A DNA stretch of 25,058 nt, from the IMG/VR virus record IMGVR_UViG_2529292919_000017, one strand, 5' to 3'. The translations under genes were made by a program, and so were the position numbers. Of the stretch, positions 5,379 to 15,298 are shown one piece after another. Within the stretch, counting starts at the first letter, position 1. Every line of letters starts with the position of its first letter. The notes beneath the pieces are model-generated. The model was not told where the DNA came from and searched no databases. It saw only the letters and a list, made by a program, of their open reading frames with translations. This DNA is from a virus (taxonomy: Duplodnaviria; Heunggongvirae; Uroviricota; Caudoviricetes).

Positions 5379-6928
5379 CTGTCTCTTGATCAGATCTCCT
5401 GATCAAGAGACTTCATCACCAGGTAACCCTCAACCATATCCTGAAGTCTGAACCAGCCATCCCACATGACTACCCAACCGGGGCGACCGGTGCGTTTGCT
5501 GTCATGCCATCGCCCCAGTTTCGCCAGTTTCAGACAGGCCCATTTCAGTGTCGGCATCTGTGACGGAAGCGGTTTTCCTTCCAGCTTAACCCACAGCAGT
5601 TTCCACTCTGTCGGCGTCAGTACTTTCTCACAGCTGTCATTTTGTGTTTCTTCACTGATACCGCCCTGCCGCAGGCCCAGCACCCGCACCGCGATAAACG
5701 CCTTGATAACCACCATGCGCTCGAGGTTATCCCGGGTCTGCATTCGCAGCGATTCCACACATGTACCACCACTTTTCCACGCCTTGTGGTATTCCTCTAT
5801 CAGCCAGCGTCGCTCGTAATGGCTGACGATACGTCGCGCATCGGCGGCACTCGCCACTTTTTCTGACGTCAGCAGATGCCAGCAGGCGCCGTCCTCTGCC
5901 TGCTCCCGGCAACAGACATACGTGAGCGGGAGCGCCTGGCCGCTGTTGTCGGGATTTTTTATGCTGACTTCGCTGTAACTGATGAACATCCGGGCCTGGC
6001 GGGCTGCCCGCCCGCCTTTTTGCATCACATTCAGCGTGTGGCTTCCCGCAGTTGCCAGGACTTCCGGCAGTTCGAAGAGCTTGCCGGGTGCTTCTTCCAG
6101 CCGGCGATTCTGTGCTGCACGCACCACGAAGCGCTGCCCGTGGCTGACTTTATAATGCAGGTAATGCCAGATATCCGCTTCCCGGTCACAGACAGTGATT
6201 ACCCGTTTCTGTATCTCCCCCAGCCGTTCGGCCATGCGCTCCGAAGCCTGCTGCCAGCGGTAACTTTCTTTTTCTTCATAGGGACGTTCTTTTCGCTGGT
6301 GCTTAACACCGTAGGTGTCCGTGGCACGACTCCAGCGCTGCTGTTCGATAAGACCGACTGGCAGGGCGCTGTCGGGGGCGTACATCAGGACAGAGTGAGC
6401 CAGCAGCCCGCGCGTCTTCGGGTTAGTGGTGGTATTCCCCAGGTCATCAGATGCCGTACTGTGACTGAAGTTAATGGTGGTGGTGTCTTCCAGCGCGAGG
6501 AGCAGCGGATGAGCCTCACATGCCCTTACAGTGGCGGTAAATCCGGCTTCGGCAATGGCTTGCGGGGACACAGACGGGTTACGTATCAGGCGGTACGCAC
6601 CTTCAACCTGAGCAGTGGACTGGGATGATTTCACAATAGAAAGACCTGCATGCTGAGCGAGAGAAGAGGCCAGTGACACAAGGCGTCGTGTACGACGCGG
6701 ATCACCGAGACGGGCATGTCCAAACTGCTCGTTAGCCCATGAATAACAATCAGAAAGTACCATAACAGACCCGAAGAAAATGAAATATAAGAGAAGATCA
6801 ACGGGTGAGGAAAAAGTTCAAAAAATCGCTGCCGGGGAGGAAGGAAACTACCGGATGGAAAGAGTCCCCCTAAAGCAGACTGACAGACATCACAAATCCC
6901 CGGGTGGGGATTTGTGTATAAGAGACAG
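5379..6928 (-). mobile_element. IS50-like insertion sequence (IS4 family)
   Basis: Left end CTGTCTCTTGATCAGATCT (5379-5397) is identical to the Tn5/IS50 inside end; right end reads CTGTCTCTTATACACAAAT in revcomp (to 6928), close to the IS50 outside end. Flanked by direct repeat CAAAACAG (5371-5378 and 6929-6936). Confidence 0.85.
5390..6763 (-). CDS. IS50-like DDE transposase
   Basis: 457-aa ORF; N-terminus ...LGDPRRTRRLVSLASSLAQHAGLSIVKSS...EGAYRLIRNPSVSPQAIAEAGF parallels Tn5 transposase (LGDPRRTARLVNVAAQLAKY...EGAYRFIRNPNVSAEAIRKAG) from memory; C-terminus reaches the inside end as in IS50. Confidence 0.85.
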   Translation of the reverse strand: MVLSDCYSWANEQFGHARLGDPRRTRRLVSLASSLAQHAGLSIVKSSQSTAQVEGAYRLIRNPSVSPQAIAEAGFTATVRACEAHPLLLALEDTTTINFSHSTASDDLGNTTTNPKTRGLLAHSVLMYAPDSALPVGLIEQQRWSRATDTYGVKHQRKERPYEEKESYRWQQASERMAERLGEIQKRVITVCDREADIWHYLHYKVSHGQRFVVRAAQNRRLEEAPGKLFELPEVLATAGSHTLNVMQKGGRAARQARMFISYSEVSIKNPDNSGQALPLTYVCCREQAEDGACWHLLTSEKVASAADARRIVSHYERRWLIEEYHKAWKSGGTCVESLRMQTRDNLERMVVIKAFIAVRVLGLRQGGISEETQNDSCEKVLTPTEWKLLWVKLEGKPLPSQMPTLKWACLKLAKLGRWHDSKRTGRPGWVVMWDGWFRLQDMVEGYLVMKSLDQEI

Positions 6929-11636: not shown

Positions 11637-12260
11637 ATGAGACTCGAAAGCGTAGCTAAATTTCATTCGCCAAAAAGCCCGATGATGAGCGACTCACCAC
11701 GGGCCACGGCTTCTGACTCTCTTTCCGGTACTGATGTGATGGCTGCTATGGGGATGGCGCAATCACAAGCCGGATTCGGAATGGCTGCATTCTGCGGTAA
11801 GCACGAACTCAGCCAGAACGACAAACAAAAGGCTATCAACTATCTGATGCAATTTGCACACAAGGTATCGGGGAAATACCGTGGCGTGGCAAAGCTTGAA
11901 GGAAATACTAAGGCAAAGGTACTGCAAGTGCTCGCAACATTCGCTTATGCGGATTATTGCCGTAGTGCCGCGACGCCGGGCGCAAGATGCAGAGATTGCC
12001 ACGGTACAGGCCGTGCGGTTGATATAGCCAAAACAGAGCAGTGGGGGATAGTTGCTGAGAAAGAGTGCGGAAGATGTAAAGGCGTCGGTTATTCAAGAAT
12101 GCCAGCAAGCGCCGCATATCGCGCTGTGACGATGCTAATCCCAAACCTTACCCAACCCACCTGGTCACGCACTGTTAAGCCGCTGTATGACGCTCTGGTT
12201 GTGCAATGCCACAAGGAAGAGTCAATCGCAGACAACATTTTGAATGCGATCACACGTTAG
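11637..12260 (+). CDS. Q: late-gene antiterminator Q (lambda type)
   Basis: ATG 11637 after AGAGGGGAAG; MRLESVAKFHSPKSPMMSDSPRATASDSLSGTDVMAAMGMAQSQAGFGMAAFCGKHELSQ... matches lambda Q from memory over 207 aa. Confidence 0.9.
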   Translation: MRLESVAKFHSPKSPMMSDSPRATASDSLSGTDVMAAMGMAQSQAGFGMAAFCGKHELSQNDKQKAINYLMQFAHKVSGKYRGVAKLEGNTKAKVLQVLATFAYADYCRSAATPGARCRDCHGTGRAVDIAKTEQWGIVAEKECGRCKGVGYSRMPASAAYRAVTMLIPNLTQPTWSRTVKPLYDALVVQCHKEESIADNILNAITR

Positions 12261-12302
12261 CGCCATGATTGCCACGGATGGCAACATATTAACGGCATAA
12301 TA

Positions 12303-12335
12303 TTGACTTTTTGAATAACTTTGGGGAAACTTGAC
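12303..12335 (+). promoter_or_regulatory. pR'-like late promoter with qut, -10 hexamer altered relative to lambda
   Basis: TTGACT (12303-12308), spacer TTTTGAATAACTTTGGG, then GAAACT (12326-12331), parallel to lambda TTGACT-TATTGAATAAAATTGGG-TAAATT; resemblance to lambda appears to stop just after TTGAC at about 12335. Confidence 0.45.
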
Positions 12336-12472
12336 ACCAATAATGGGCGTTTTTTACATGTCATTGATGAGTCTCAATAACCTGCCGCCGAGTAGTTTTT
12401 ATGCTCTGAATTGTATTTGTGTAGTAAACATGCTGACTGCAATGTAATAGAGTTTTTTTAGCCTGTAACCTC

Positions 12473-12502
12473 TTGACGGCATTGAATTGCTTTTGTTATG
12501 AG
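12473..12502 (+). promoter_or_regulatory. candidate sigma70 promoter for the membrane-protein gene
   Basis: -35 TTGACG (12473-12478), 17-18 bp spacer, -10 TTATGA/TATGAG (12496-12502), about 40 bp upstream of ATG 12540. Confidence 0.3.
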
Positions 12503-12539
12503 TTGTAAGCCAATGTTATCATCTTGTATTGGGGTGGTT

Positions 12540-13256
12540 ATGAAGGATGGTGCACTGCTCAGGAGTTCTTCACTTTTTATTGCCTACATGGGATGCCTTG
12601 GATGGGGGAGTGCTTATTTCTATGGATGGGGTACTTCTTTTTACTACGGCTTCCCATGGTGGATTGTAGGTGCAGGTGTTGATGATGTTGCCAGAAGTTT
12701 ATTTTTTGCAGTTATCGTCATTGCTATATTTCTTATCGGTTGGGGTATTGGTGTTGTATTCTTTTTCGCAGTGAAAAGAAAACATTCTATGCAAGAGCTA
12801 AATGTATTTCGCCTTTATTTTGCTGTGGAATTATTGTTTGTGCCGGCAATTATTGAGTTTTCTATATTGAGACAGAAGATTCAGGTACCTCTTTTGCTAC
12901 TGTCAGCAGCGATTGCGCTGGCGGTTACAATTTCGATAAGATCTTATGGGCGATTTTTATCGGTATCATGCTTCTATGATAAGCCATTTATAAAAAAACA
13001 TTTTTTTGAGATTGTGATGATTGCTTTTGTGGCATATTTCTGGTTTTTTTCATTTCTGACAGGATATTACAAACCGCAGTTTAAGAAAGAATATGAAATG
13101 ATTAATTATAATGATGGTTGGTATTATGTTCTTGCTCGTTATGATAATTGTCTGGTTTTGTCTACTTCTTTCAATGCAGGTAGTAAAAGGTTTGTCATTT
13201 ATCAATCAGCACAAGATAAGAATCTTCAGGTTGATATTGTAAGGACCAGAATTTAA
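12540..13256 (+). CDS. polytopic inner-membrane protein of unknown function (about 238 aa, 5-6 predicted TM helices plus a C-terminal soluble tail)
   Basis: ATG 12540 after GGGGTGG (track ORF starts at 12498). Hydrophobic segments LFIAYMGCLGWGSAYFYGW, LFFAVIVIAIFLIGWGIGVVFFFAV, LYFAVELLFVPAIIEFSIL, VPLLLLSAAIALAVTISI, FFEIVMIAFVAYFWFFSFLTGYY; C-terminal YNDGWYYVLARYDNCLVLSTSFNAGSKRFVIYQ. Visibly AT-rich relative to the flanking phage genes. Confidence 0.65.
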   Translation: MKDGALLRSSSLFIAYMGCLGWGSAYFYGWGTSFYYGFPWWIVGAGVDDVARSLFFAVIVIAIFLIGWGIGVVFFFAVKRKHSMQELNVFRLYFAVELLFVPAIIEFSILRQKIQVPLLLLSAAIALAVTISIRSYGRFLSVSCFYDKPFIKKHFFEIVMIAFVAYFWFFSFLTGYYKPQFKKEYEMINYNDGWYYVLARYDNCLVLSTSFNAGSKRFVIYQSAQDKNLQVDIVRTRI

Positions 13257-13686
13257 TTGGCTGCATAAATAATATTTTAAGTTGCAAGTTGGCTATTCGT
13301 AGGAATAGAACCTTAGGCATGCTGAATGCGTTTTCTGAACATTGTTTTATAAACTGTGTCTGCTTGCTGTTGTGATCCTGCTTTTAGTGATGGTGATGAT
13401 GGATTTCACCAGCAGGATAATGTTGGTACTGACTGATGGCGCTCTGGTCTGCGGCATTGTGGTATTGCTGTGGCCGATGATGAAAAAACAGAATGAATAA
13501 TCCTTGACTTTTTTGTTTACTGTTTATTAAAAAATCAACCGCATGGTGAATCCTCCTTGGAGGGGCTAAATGATCGAGTTTTAAGGGCACGTAGCGAGTT
13601 CTGTTTGATCATTGCAGAACTTAGCGGGAGGCGCCATGCGTACATCACTAATGTTATTTCCTTCTATCATTTTCCTTGTGAGTTCT

Positions 13687-13713
13687 GGCTGCGCATGGCG
13701 CGGCCTTTTTTTT
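13687..13713 (+). terminator. rho-independent terminator
   Basis: Stem GGCTGCGC (13687-13694) / GCGCGGCC (13698-13705) with one G-U pair, 3-nt loop, then eight T (13706-13713). Confidence 0.55.
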
Positions 13714-13894
13714 ATGACCTGCCACTGGCAGATGGTCATCCTGTGATTTGATTCCGGTTCCGGCTTTTTAACTCTGTTCCTGTACACGGGAGAAATTCTA
13801 TGTCGATTAATCGTTATGATATTGGTTACAAGAAGTACCACGTATTGTGTTGAGATAGAAAGCATGGTGCCAGAGGTAAATGCAGCAGCATAAT

Positions 13895-13942
13895 AAAAAA
13901 GAGCCAGCGCAGAAGAGAACGGGTAAAAGAGTCTGCGCTGGC
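13895..13942 (-). terminator. rho-independent terminator on the minus strand with no obvious upstream gene
   Basis: Perfect 11-bp stem GCCAGCGCAGA (13903-13913) / TCTGCGCTGGC (13932-13942) with an 18-nt loop; the plus-strand A-run 13895-13900 gives a U-run after the stem on the minus strand. Confidence 0.45.
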
Positions 13943-14058
13943 GTGGGGATATTCCCCGTGGAGAAATGATATGTAACACACATCGGGAACCTTTCTATAT
14001 AAACATTATCATTATTGTCAATCATAACAGTCAGGTATTATGACGTTTATGCATCAGG

Positions 14059-14086
14059 GCCATCAGGAATTAACTGGTGGCTTTTT
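14059..14086 (+). terminator. rho-independent terminator immediately upstream of the holin gene (tR'-like)
   Basis: Stem GCCATCAG (14059-14066) / CTGGTGGC (14074-14081) with one G-U pair, 7-nt loop, then TTTTT (14082-14086); about 35 bp before the S start. Confidence 0.5.
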
Positions 14087-14121
14087 ATTGTTGTCAGCTT
14101 CCGGATAACGGGAGACGGGGT

Positions 14122-14337
14122 ATGTACCAGATGGAAAAAATAACAACAGGTGTGTCATACACCACGTCAGCGGTGGGGACGGGATACTGGCTACTGCAGT
14201 TGCTGGACAAAGTCTCCCCATCCCAGTGGGTGGCAATAGGCGTATTGGGTAGCCTGGTGTTTGGCTTGCTGACGTATCTGACAAACCTTTATTTCAAGAT
14301 TAAAGAAGATAAGCGTAAGGCTGCGAGAGGTGAATAA
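14122..14337 (+). CDS. S: holin S (phage-21 type, dual-start motif)
   Basis: ATG 14122 after GGGAGACGGGG; [45 protein letters not shown]... with two Met codons separated by YQ (antiholin/holin starts); matches the S21-type holin from memory. Confidence 0.85.
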
Positions 14338-14834
14338 TGTCGCCATCATTACGCAAGGCTGTTGCTGCTGCTATTGGTGGTGGGGCTGTTGCCATAGCGT
14401 CTGTGCTCATCACTGGTCCGAGTGGTGACGATGGCCAGGAAGGTGTCAGCTACATACCATACGAAGATATCGTTGGCGTATGGACTGTATGTCACGGACA
14501 CACCGGAAAAGACATCATTCCCGGTAAAACGTATACCGAAGCAGAATGCAAAGCCCTCCTGAATAAAGACCTTGCCATGGTCGCCAGACAAATTAACCCG
14601 TACATCAAAGTCGATATACCGGAAACAACGCGCGGCGCTCTTTACTCGTTCGTTTACAACGTGGGCGCTGGTAATTTCAGAACATCGACGCTTCTTCGCA
14701 AAATAAACCAGGGTGATATCAAAGGCGCATGTGACCAGCTACGTCGCTGGACATACGCTGGCGGTAAGCAATGGAAAGGGCTGATGACCCGTCGTGATAT
14801 TGAGCGTGAAGTCTGTTTGTGGGGGCAGCAATGA
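14337..14834 (+). CDS. R: SAR endolysin R (lysozyme with N-terminal signal-anchor-release domain)
   Basis: 165-aa ORF; N-terminal [21 protein letters not shown] is a Gly/Ala-rich SAR segment; followed by lysozyme-like sequence; start overlaps the S stop (TAATG). Confidence 0.85.
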
Positions 14835-15298
14835 GCAGGGTAACCGCGATTATCTCCGCTCTGGTTATTTGCATCATCCTCTGCCTGTCATGGGCTGTTA
14901 ATCATTACCGTGATAACGCCATCGCCTACAAAGAGCAGCGTGATAAAAAAGTCAGTGAGCTGAAGCAGGCGACCGCCACCATTACTGACATGCAGCAACG
15001 CCAGCGTGCTGCTGATGTACTCGATGCTAAATACACGAAGGAGTTAGCCAATGCGAAAGCTGAAAATGATGCTCTTCGGCGTAAGCTTGATAATGGTGGT
15101 CGGGTGCTCGTCAAAGGAAAATGCCCTGTGCCAGCCTCAGCCAAAACCTCCAGCTCCTCCGGCATGGGCAATGATGCCACCGTCGAACTCTCTTCAGTTG
15201 CTGGACGAAACGTTCTCGGTATCCGGGACGGAATTATCCGTGACCAAACAGCACTGAGAACGCTTCAGGAGTACATCAGGACGCAATGCCTGAAATAA
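14831..15298 (+). CDS. Rz: Rz i-spanin
   Basis: ATG 14831 (ATGA overlap with the R stop); [34 protein letters not shown]... matches the lambda Rz N-terminus from memory. Confidence 0.85.
15051..15257 (+). CDS. Rz1: Rz1 o-spanin lipoprotein, embedded in Rz in the +1 frame
   Basis: 68-aa ORF inside Rz; signal peptide ending in lipobox VVGC, then a proline-rich stretch [11 protein letters not shown] as in lambda Rz1. Confidence 0.75.

Follow-up and report, generated by a model that had tools for sequence, protein, structure and literature searches.

A TfpB/STM1630-family membrane-protein gene between the antiterminator and holin genes of a lambdoid prophage of enteropathogenic Escherichia coli

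The stretch of DNA analysed here, referred to as the window, is 25,058 nucleotides long (IMG/VR record IMGVR_UViG_2529292919_000017, Caudoviricetes) and corresponds to a lambdoid prophage of the enteropathogenic Escherichia coli (EPEC) O127:H6 strain E2348/69. It is 99.9% identical to NC_011601 at about 1.046-1.073 Mb, and window positions equal the positions in that record minus 1,046,719. The prophage is named PP4 in the published annotation of E2348/69 (PMC8550237 supplement). Our subject is E2348C_1012, an AT-rich gene located between the antiterminator gene Q and the holin gene, which is transcribed in the uninduced lysogen and encodes a predicted inner-membrane protein of the TfpB/STM1630 family. 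We are highly confident that it is an expressed moron encoding a membrane protein of this family. The region is organized in the order nin genes, Q, the late promoter pR' with qut, E2348C_1012, a DUF3927 gene, the small RNA (sRNA) PasD1, an Esr41-like element on the minus strand, a hairpin, a pinholin gene, a signal-anchor-release (SAR)-type endolysin gene and Rz. The features that bear directly on E2348C_1012 are the following:

11637..12260, plus strand: lambda-type antiterminator gene Q (E2348C_1011; Pfam PF03589, E 1.4e-57), the upstream boundary of the slot.
12303..12350, plus strand: lambda-type late promoter pR' with qut, with -35 TTGACT at 12303-12308 and -10 GAAACT at 12326-12331.
12376..12412, plus strand: what remains of the terminator found ahead of the cassette in phage 434, here degenerate and without its hairpin; nothing hairpin-like abuts the U tract.
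12473..12502, plus strand: candidate sigma70 promoter of the gene's own, with -35 TTGACG at 12473-12478, TG at 12494-12495 and -10-like TATGAG at 12497-12502.
12531..12537, plus strand: Shine-Dalgarno-like GGGGTGG ahead of the ATG at 12540, as read from the sequence.
12540..13256, plus strand: TfpB/STM1630-family inner-membrane protein gene (E2348C_1012, WP_001299184.1, 238 aa).
14122..14337, plus strand: P21-type class II (pin)holin gene (Pfam PF04971, E 2e-32, and the Prokaryotic Genome Annotation Pipeline, PGAP), the downstream boundary of the slot.

The DNA of Q is 96% identical to that of lambda Q, and PGAP names the product 'antitermination protein'. Assignment of Q to the phage 82/21 type was considered and rejected on the grounds of this identity and the PF03589 match. 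The promoter that follows is presumably pR' with qut, an assignment that we base on the established pR'/qut layout of lambda; by reading of the sequence, a -10-like pause element, AATAAT, is located at 12339-12344 and is followed by GGG, with a likely start at about 12339. Megablast homology to lambda (J02459) ends at 12335, where an initial annotation of the window from its letters alone had placed the approximate end of the resemblance, and that to HK97- and mEp-type phages extends to about 12347. The GC fraction is 0.31-0.41 over about 12200-13550 compared with about 0.50 in both flanks, in agreement with the AT-rich segment noted there, and marks the segment as compositionally foreign. The gene is also confirmed as cargo of the Q-to-holin slot: lambda lacks it, whereas phage 434 (OL657226, CPT_434_68), phage 2B8 and an O157 prophage carry the same gene in the same slot.

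E2348C_1012 is contained in an open reading frame (ORF) at 12498..13256 on the plus strand. An alignment of 26 homologues identifies the ATG at 12540 as the conserved start, giving a protein of 238 aa, and the same start is used in WP_001299184.1 and in the old annotation of E2348C_1012 (1059259-1059975, which is 12540-13256 in the window). The hydropathy profile contains four strong transmembrane (TM) segments with strongly hydrophobic 19-mers (residues 54-78, 92-110, 115-133 and 155-173), preceded by a weakly hydrophobic N-terminal helix that is rich in aromatic residues and glycine. An AlphaFold2 model inferred with distant relatives in the alignment reached a predicted local distance difference test score (pLDDT) of 80.7 and a predicted template modelling score (pTM) of 0.73; it replaced an earlier run on close homologues only, for which the pLDDT was 59.6. 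In the model, residues 6-181 form five helices (6-36, 47-79, 89-111, 116-136 and 149-181), and five strands at residues 184-235 make up a small all-beta domain of about 55 aa at the C terminus, consistent with the 5-6 helices and tail of about 55 aa that had been read from the sequence initially. The loop at residues 79-91 is rich in lysine and arginine (mean 4.0 K+R), and from this charge distribution we infer an N-in/C-out topology, in which the beta domain and an aromatic loop between helices 1 and 2 would face the periplasm. This aromatic loop, AYFYGWGxSFYYGFPWW, is a hallmark of the family and is strongly conserved in the family alignments. Positions A15, A25, Y26, G175 and Y195 are near-invariant across the family. 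No polar or catalytic-type residue is conserved across the family alignment, which makes a binding function more probable than a catalytic one.

To estimate the selective constraints on the gene, we calculated ratios of nonsynonymous to synonymous substitution frequencies (dN/dS), which were in the range of 0.05-0.2 in all unsaturated pairwise comparisons. Examples are 0.058 for the window allele against that of E. albertii, 0.068 for S. enterica against S. diarizonae, and 0.178 for the allele of enterotoxigenic E. coli (ETEC) against that of extraintestinal pathogenic E. coli (ExPEC). Because of these low values and the many homologues of the same architecture, the ORF is a real gene under purifying selection. 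The allele, including the promoter region, is present at an identity of at least 99% in 679 of 5426 complete E. coli genomes. An intact coding sequence is annotated in all 40 entries sampled across the ranking of matches, including strains of serotypes O157:H7, O55:H7, O145:H28 and O111:H8, and O26 and O103 strains were among the best matches of a wider search.

The initial annotation had been unable to place the protein in any family, but several public resources do so. The identical RefSeq protein, WP_001299184.1, is named 'STM1630 family protein' by the newest PGAP annotation, and PF27470, a Pfam family with the name TfpB, is precomputed for all 107 homologues retrieved by a word index as well as for a cluster representative with 99% identity. 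The protein also matches PHROG 1521 ('unknown function') with an E-value of 6.7e-154. Among the relatives in Salmonella is a protein of 238 aa with 46% identity over the full length, which we identified as STM1630: its gene is 717 bp long and adjoins sseJ, and the published primer Fw-STM1630-P1 encodes its residues 9-23. Seeding a search with a distant relative led to a Moraxella 'protein tfpB' (named so by the Joint Genome Institute), with 29% identity and a BLASTP E-value of 3e-23. Other scans were uninformative: the local copies of Pfam-A and NCBIfam, which do not hold the PF27470 model, gave only a sub-threshold DUF4501 match for the target protein, 26 diverse family members scanned against Pfam had only scattered single weak matches, and a sequence-profile search of the PDB with the target protein matched no solved fold.

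The TfpB/STM1630 family appears to be small, since a profile search of 1.84 billion representative sequences returned only 75 matches. These and the 107 word-index homologues are all of the same architecture, which is kept, along with a C-terminal YY[VI]L motif, in the distant relatives from Neisseria, Pasteurellaceae and Moraxella. The named taxa with family members are Enterobacteriaceae, Yersinia, Neisseria, Moraxella and Pasteurellaceae (Avibacterium, Gallibacterium, Pasteurella, Actinobacillus and Mannheimia), all of them animal-associated; the few further matches are metagenomic. A literature search on E2348C_1012, Moraxella tfpB, TciB/TciA/DUF3927 and lpxR in phage 434 yielded nothing relevant. 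The gene, its family and its expression are thus already in public records, and the family is catalogued but functionally uncharacterised.

Family members are found in very different genomic settings. On ETEC plasmids, a member with 58% identity is located about 870 bp upstream of, and divergent from, eltAB, the genes for the heat-labile enterotoxin (LT). A chromosomal island of ExPEC carries a member between iroB/iroC and a lambda Bor (iss-like) gene, a C. rodentium member directly adjoins lpxR, and the copies of Salmonella enterica, arizonae and diarizonae, which adjoin sseJ in Salmonella, share their chromosomal neighbourhood with the C. rodentium copy. Further settings are one end of a P2-like prophage, where the gene adjoins SRAP/umuDC genes, and an icd-adjacent island, where it lies beside a pair of AAA ATPase genes; in Neisseria, Avibacterium and Mannheimia the gene is a singleton between housekeeping genes at loci that differ. 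Comparisons of the E. coli, Citrobacter and Salmonella contexts showed that downstream homology does not extend beyond the stop codon; upstream, the alleles of phage, ETEC and ExPEC are homologous essentially from the -35 element onwards. These breakpoints indicate that the gene moves alone between phage, plasmid and chromosomal sites. From the candidate promoter to its 3' end the unit appears to be self-contained: the DUF3927 gene that follows it here adjoins it in phage contexts only, and not at the ETEC, ExPEC, Citrobacter and Salmonella loci. We therefore rejected the possibility that DUF3927 and E2348C_1012 constitute a two-gene system. The undescribed system suspected in the initial annotation is likewise reduced to a lone gene that travels without its neighbours.

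Some of these loci have additional features. The ETEC plasmid copy (gene at 6001-6714 of the locus) lies between insertion sequence elements, with estB (STb) 3 kb away. In the ExPEC island, a tRNA-like sequence is located just downstream of the family member, and the locus resembles a lambdoid Q-S/late region that has decayed. The gene for the lipid A deacylase, lpxR, recurs upstream in the opposite orientation in C. rodentium, phage 434 and O157:H7 strain SS17; in phage 434 and O157, ylcG and a Q82-type Q lie between it and the family member, alongside a truncated lambda Q fragment, indicative of a mosaic junction.

CPT_434_68 in phage 434 and WP_001302581.1 in O157:H7 are essentially the allele of the window; they have 98-99.6% nucleotide identity to it and are followed by the same DUF3927 gene and sRNA terminator. 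The surroundings differ in that lpxR and the truncated lambda Q lie upstream in phage 434 and O157 and, in phage 434, a SASA esterase gene lies downstream. Moreover, the cassette of phage 434 and O157 follows a Q82-type antiterminator and an intact terminator (locus 2478-2512 in phage 434, -12.5 kcal/mol, then U8), whereas in the window it follows an intact lambda-type Q and the terminator has been lost.

To examine whether the gene is expressed, we used the DESeq2 base means in the supplement of a published study of the EPEC Hfq interactome (PMC8550237 table S2). In uninduced E2348/69 under virulence-activating conditions, the base mean was 147 for E2348C_1012, as compared with 6.0 for Q, 5.4 for the holin gene, 3.9 for the endolysin gene and 0.4-2.3 for the nin genes. 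Under non-activating conditions, the corresponding values were 90.3 for E2348C_1012, 1.35 for Q, 1.2 for the holin gene and 0.6 for the endolysin gene, and the repressor-like gene E2348C_0995 had a base mean of 789. E2348C_1012 is thus transcribed in the uninduced lysogen, as the initial annotation had anticipated, at levels about 25-70 times those of the flanking Q and holin genes. Silence in the lysogen, which that annotation had named as grounds for refutation, is thereby contradicted. The transcription seen in the lysogen begins after Q and ends before the holin gene and, since these two genes are near-silent, is independent of the flanking phage genes. Across the whole of PP4 (E2348C_0979-1044), substantial transcription in the uninduced RNA sequencing (RNA-seq) data was confined to E2348C_0995, E2348C_0996, E2348C_1012 and E2348C_1013.

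A promoter of the gene's own is probable. The motif TTGAC[GT]-N15-TTTGT[TA]ATG is present at -67/-68 from the start codon in the alleles from phage, ETEC plasmid and ExPEC island, and it has been kept although the spacer and upstream sequences have diverged and coding dS is saturated among the three lineages. The candidate promoter may accordingly be read as a -35 element TTGACG, an 18-nt spacer and a TG-extended -10 element TATGAG, which represents a phylogenetic footprint rather than a demonstration.

Transcripts from pR' may also contribute. A custom scan of 12340-12540 detected no canonical terminator between the pR' start and the gene, and a terminator at this position was rejected as a candidate, the hairpin of the phage 434 type being destroyed in the window while it is intact in both phage 434 and O157. 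The first canonical plus-strand terminator after pR', about 1.35 kb away, is that of PasD1 (13687-13705 followed by U8, -15.2 kcal/mol), which is also the first one after E2348C_1012; the gene has no canonical terminator of its own between 13256 and 13687. Because the tR' hairpin of the 434 type has been lost, transcription from the constitutive pR' may extend into the gene in the window, with Q raising the level on induction.

The features that separate E2348C_1012 from the lysis genes, and those that follow, are:

13342..13500, plus strand: gene for a small membrane protein of the DUF3927 family ('TciB-like'), 52 aa, TTG start (Pfam PF13064, E 1.4e-14; PHROG 1470).
13541..13713, plus strand: Hfq-binding sRNA PasD1 (E2348CN_0004, STnc100-like), annotated at 1060260-1060432 (PMC8550237 supplement).
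13893-13982, minus strand: Esr41-like element (32 bits, E 1.3e-3, well below the gathering score), with a GC hairpin and U tract.
14058..14090, plus strand: a second hairpin resembling a terminator (-14 to -16 kcal/mol), located shortly before the holin gene, with UUUUUAUU after it.
14337-14834: SAR-type endolysin gene, located after the pinholin gene and followed by Rz.

The label of the DUF3927 protein in phage 434 and PHROGs, 'TciB-like inhibition of cell division or resistance to colicin', was given by analogy with P1 tciB. The Rfam STnc100 model matches 13511-13716 with 37.7 bits (E 4.9e-6), which is below the gathering score, and a promoter-like TTGACT is present at 13504-13509 ahead of PasD1. 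Inside PasD1 is a short ORF at 13636-13746 on the plus strand, with a GGGAGG Shine-Dalgarno sequence at 13626-13631 and a lipoprotein-like signal (MRTSLMLFPSIIFLVSSGC...), which overlaps the sRNA terminator; it is probably non-coding, since its frame is disrupted in phage 434 by an indel of 1 nt. The old tag E2348C_1013 had a very high read count, 2064, in the published RNA-seq data, and this was Hfq-dependent (log2 fold change -2.9). We also considered as a partner gene the 132-aa ORF that PGAP annotates on the reverse strand at 13581-13979; it has no family, is only partly conserved in phage 434 and overlaps two sRNA loci, and is probably spurious. While Q (11637-12260) and pR' are of lambda type, the pinholin, SAR-type endolysin and spanin genes (14122-15298) are of P21 type, and the modules on the two sides are thus of mismatched origin.

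Cargo genes of this kind are well known from lambdoid phages: stx in Shiga toxin (Stx) phages and nmpC in DLP12 are located between Q and S, and bor and lom elsewhere in lambda. Like these, E2348C_1012 is of foreign composition, lies between conserved modules, is expressed from a repressed prophage and is placed for a boost by Q. It differs from them in that no terminator follows directly, the next one being that of PasD1, and in that its predicted product is an inner-membrane protein rather than a toxin, porin or outer-membrane lipoprotein. Apart from the lack of a terminator of its own, it behaves as a textbook moron, in the slot that stx occupies in Stx phages. STM1630 (SL1344_1560) resembles it in architecture and in being an AT-rich, horizontally acquired single gene that is expressed from its own promoter without the neighbouring genes. 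STM1630 is, however, a chromosomal gene located between steB and sseJ and stable across Salmonella subspecies, whereas the window copy is carried by a phage, where it also follows a late promoter; furthermore, the mapped -10 element of STM1630 precedes the start codon by about 215 nt and has no homology to the promoter footprint seen in E. coli.

Our favoured explanation is that a self-contained cassette of promoter and gene was gained by horizontal transfer between the lambda-type Q/pR' region and the PasD1/P21-type lysis cassette. Transcription would start from the gene's own promoter, with pR' read-through adding to it and Q-modified polymerase boosting it on induction. The protein would act alone at the inner membrane by binding, with its aromatic loop and beta domain facing the periplasm, and the outcome would be lysogenic conversion of the envelope or cell surface, to the benefit of the host cell in animal-associated niches; it would probably be part of neither the phage lytic programme nor a dedicated anti-phage system. 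The explanation as a whole stands, in our judgement, about an even chance of being correct. The role in host or envelope fitness by lysogenic conversion is put forward tentatively, by analogy, and is somewhat less secure than that. We lean towards it because of the phenotypes of STM1630 and the restriction of the family, among named taxa, to animal-associated bacteria.

In Salmonella, STM1630 is bound by H-NS, is expressed in medium that induces Salmonella pathogenicity island 2 (SPI-2) and in macrophages, and is off in lysogeny broth (LB); its promoter is inactivated in ST313 (PMC6785131 S1 text). Attenuation of signature-tagged transposon mutants was seen in calves and in chickens, and deletion of the gene in strain 4/74 gave a higher intramacrophage fold-replication and no growth defect in LB (PMC6785131 S1 text). 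STM1630 is also listed among virulence-coregulated genes (PMC2639726). The location of family members beside eltAB, sseJ, iroBC/bor and lpxR further supports a role in host fitness.

Several points weigh against this explanation. The TTGACG-17-TTATGA promoter proposed in the initial annotation is present at 12473-12501, and its conserved footprint favours a promoter of the gene's own, but it is weak by consensus and falls below the threshold of a consensus scanner; promoter-like sites numbered 5, as compared with 5.9 +/- 2.5 in shuffled sequences. The motif by itself is thus not significant, and such weight as it has comes from its retention in unrelated contexts. The RNA-seq signal could be accounted for by pR' transcription alone. 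A role in host fitness is extrapolated from a Salmonella protein with 46% identity and modest phenotypes, and although hypermotility was reported for STM1630 in one screen, STM1630 was not among the mutants followed up after re-testing. The neighbouring virulence genes may reflect no more than shared AT-rich, H-NS-silenced, horizontally acquired areas or decayed prophage remnants; the ExPEC locus, with bor and tRNA-like remnants, is an example of a decayed-prophage neighbourhood. Finally, several distant relatives are found in neighbourhoods of prophage cargo or defence-like genes, which fits an anti-phage role equally well.

Such a role, suggested in the initial annotation as superinfection exclusion or abortive infection, is the second-ranked explanation. 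The gene would encode a single-gene superinfection-exclusion or anti-phage membrane protein, which would be made in the lysogen and block DNA entry, or a receptor or injection partner at the inner membrane, by means of its periplasmic loop and domain. Its moron slot in a prophage and its expression in the lysogen favour this, and the recurrence of the family as cargo in the P2-like prophage and the icd-adjacent island, as well as its solitary copies at differing loci in Neisseria, Avibacterium and Mannheimia, point in the same direction; the lack of conserved catalytic residues would suit a blocker. Nevertheless, a search of PADLOC-DB v2 with the target protein gave zero matches at E-values up to 1, PHROG 1521 carries no assigned function, and the low dN/dS ratios provide no sign of arms-race diversification. 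The Salmonella copy is regulated like a virulence gene, off in LB and on in macrophages, which would be odd for an exclusion protein, and the only experimental data on a homologue, those for STM1630, concern virulence regulation and colonisation of animals rather than phage. We consider exclusion unlikely, at roughly one chance in four.

A broader and more speculative idea would combine the two roles. The TfpB/STM1630 proteins could represent a new class of autonomous inner-membrane effectors, spread by phages, plasmids and islands among animal-associated Proteobacteria, that bind a conserved periplasm-facing machine, such as the phage DNA-entry route or a pilin/pseudopilin platform, and thereby give both exclusion and altered colonisation; in the window, such an effector would sit in a constitutive pR' leader as tR' has been lost. 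We regard this as improbable, slightly more so than exclusion on its own.

The namesake of PF27470 raises another possibility, namely that the protein is an accessory factor for type IV pilus or type II secretion system (T2SS) pseudopilin machinery that tunes pili or secretion in the lysogen. TfpB of Moraxella bovis/lacunata is a true homologue over about 220 aa, has the AY.YGWG...YGYPWW loop and the C-terminal YY[IV]L motif in common with the window protein, and is encoded between the Pilin genes of the pilin inversion locus. One metagenomic relative is located two genes from a gene for a prepilin-type N_methyl protein, and the ETEC copy lies beside eltAB. LT is exported by a T2SS. The position of Moraxella TfpB is analogous to that of TfpY, TfpX, TfpZ and FimB, pilin-adjacent small polytopic inner-membrane proteins that, like the window protein in its predicted topology, have a periplasmic C-terminal domain, and likewise no enzymatic motif; TfpY and FimB, although unrelated, promote pilus assembly (PMC11841053). 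By description, however, these proteins are set apart: TfpY-like proteins consist of three TM helices with a C-terminal domain of mixed alpha/beta fold (PMC11841053), as opposed to five helices and an all-beta domain here, and among the 75 proteins of the family profile search none of those looked up was named TfpY or FimB. Unlike Moraxella tfpB, moreover, the target has no pilin gene nearby in the window, nor do its relatives at the Salmonella, Citrobacter, Neisseria, Avibacterium and Mannheimia loci. A pilus or secretion role thus seems quite unlikely.

Slightly less probable still, in our view very doubtful, is that the gene is an orphan whose product confers immunity to, or protection from, a toxin acting on membranes, for instance a pore-forming colicin, another bacteriocin or an effector of contact-dependent inhibition (CDI) or a type VI secretion system (T6SS). 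A solitary, mobile and patchily distributed gene for a polytopic membrane protein without catalytic residues would fit this description, and the neighbouring DUF3927 gene of the phages bears the label 'TciB-like colicin resistance'; yet that label is itself only a putative annotation, no toxin gene was consistently adjacent in any of the contexts examined, and the Pfam scans showed no similarity to known colicin immunity families. A holin, antiholin, lysis-timing protein or membrane toxin at the head of the late operon, as might be suspected from the position downstream of pR' and directly upstream of the holin-endolysin-spanin cassette, is highly improbable because the gene is steadily transcribed at housekeeping-like levels in healthy uninduced lysogens in which the holin gene is silent and because stand-alone copies are found far from lysis genes in Salmonella, Citrobacter, Neisseria and Pasteurellaceae, and two terminators and two sRNA loci separate it from the holin gene. 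The membrane toxin suggested in the initial annotation is made unlikely also by the intact copies in hundreds of genomes.

As it stands, E2348C_1012 is a well-supported 'conserved hypothetical moron' rather than a new system. Its allele is carried by about 1 in 8 complete E. coli genomes, mostly of enterohaemorrhagic E. coli (EHEC) and EPEC lineages (O157:H7, O55:H7, O145, O111, O26 and O103). Knowledge of its function would explain a widespread and so far ignored lysogenic-conversion gene of pathogenic E. coli, and would provide the first activity for the whole Pfam family PF27470.

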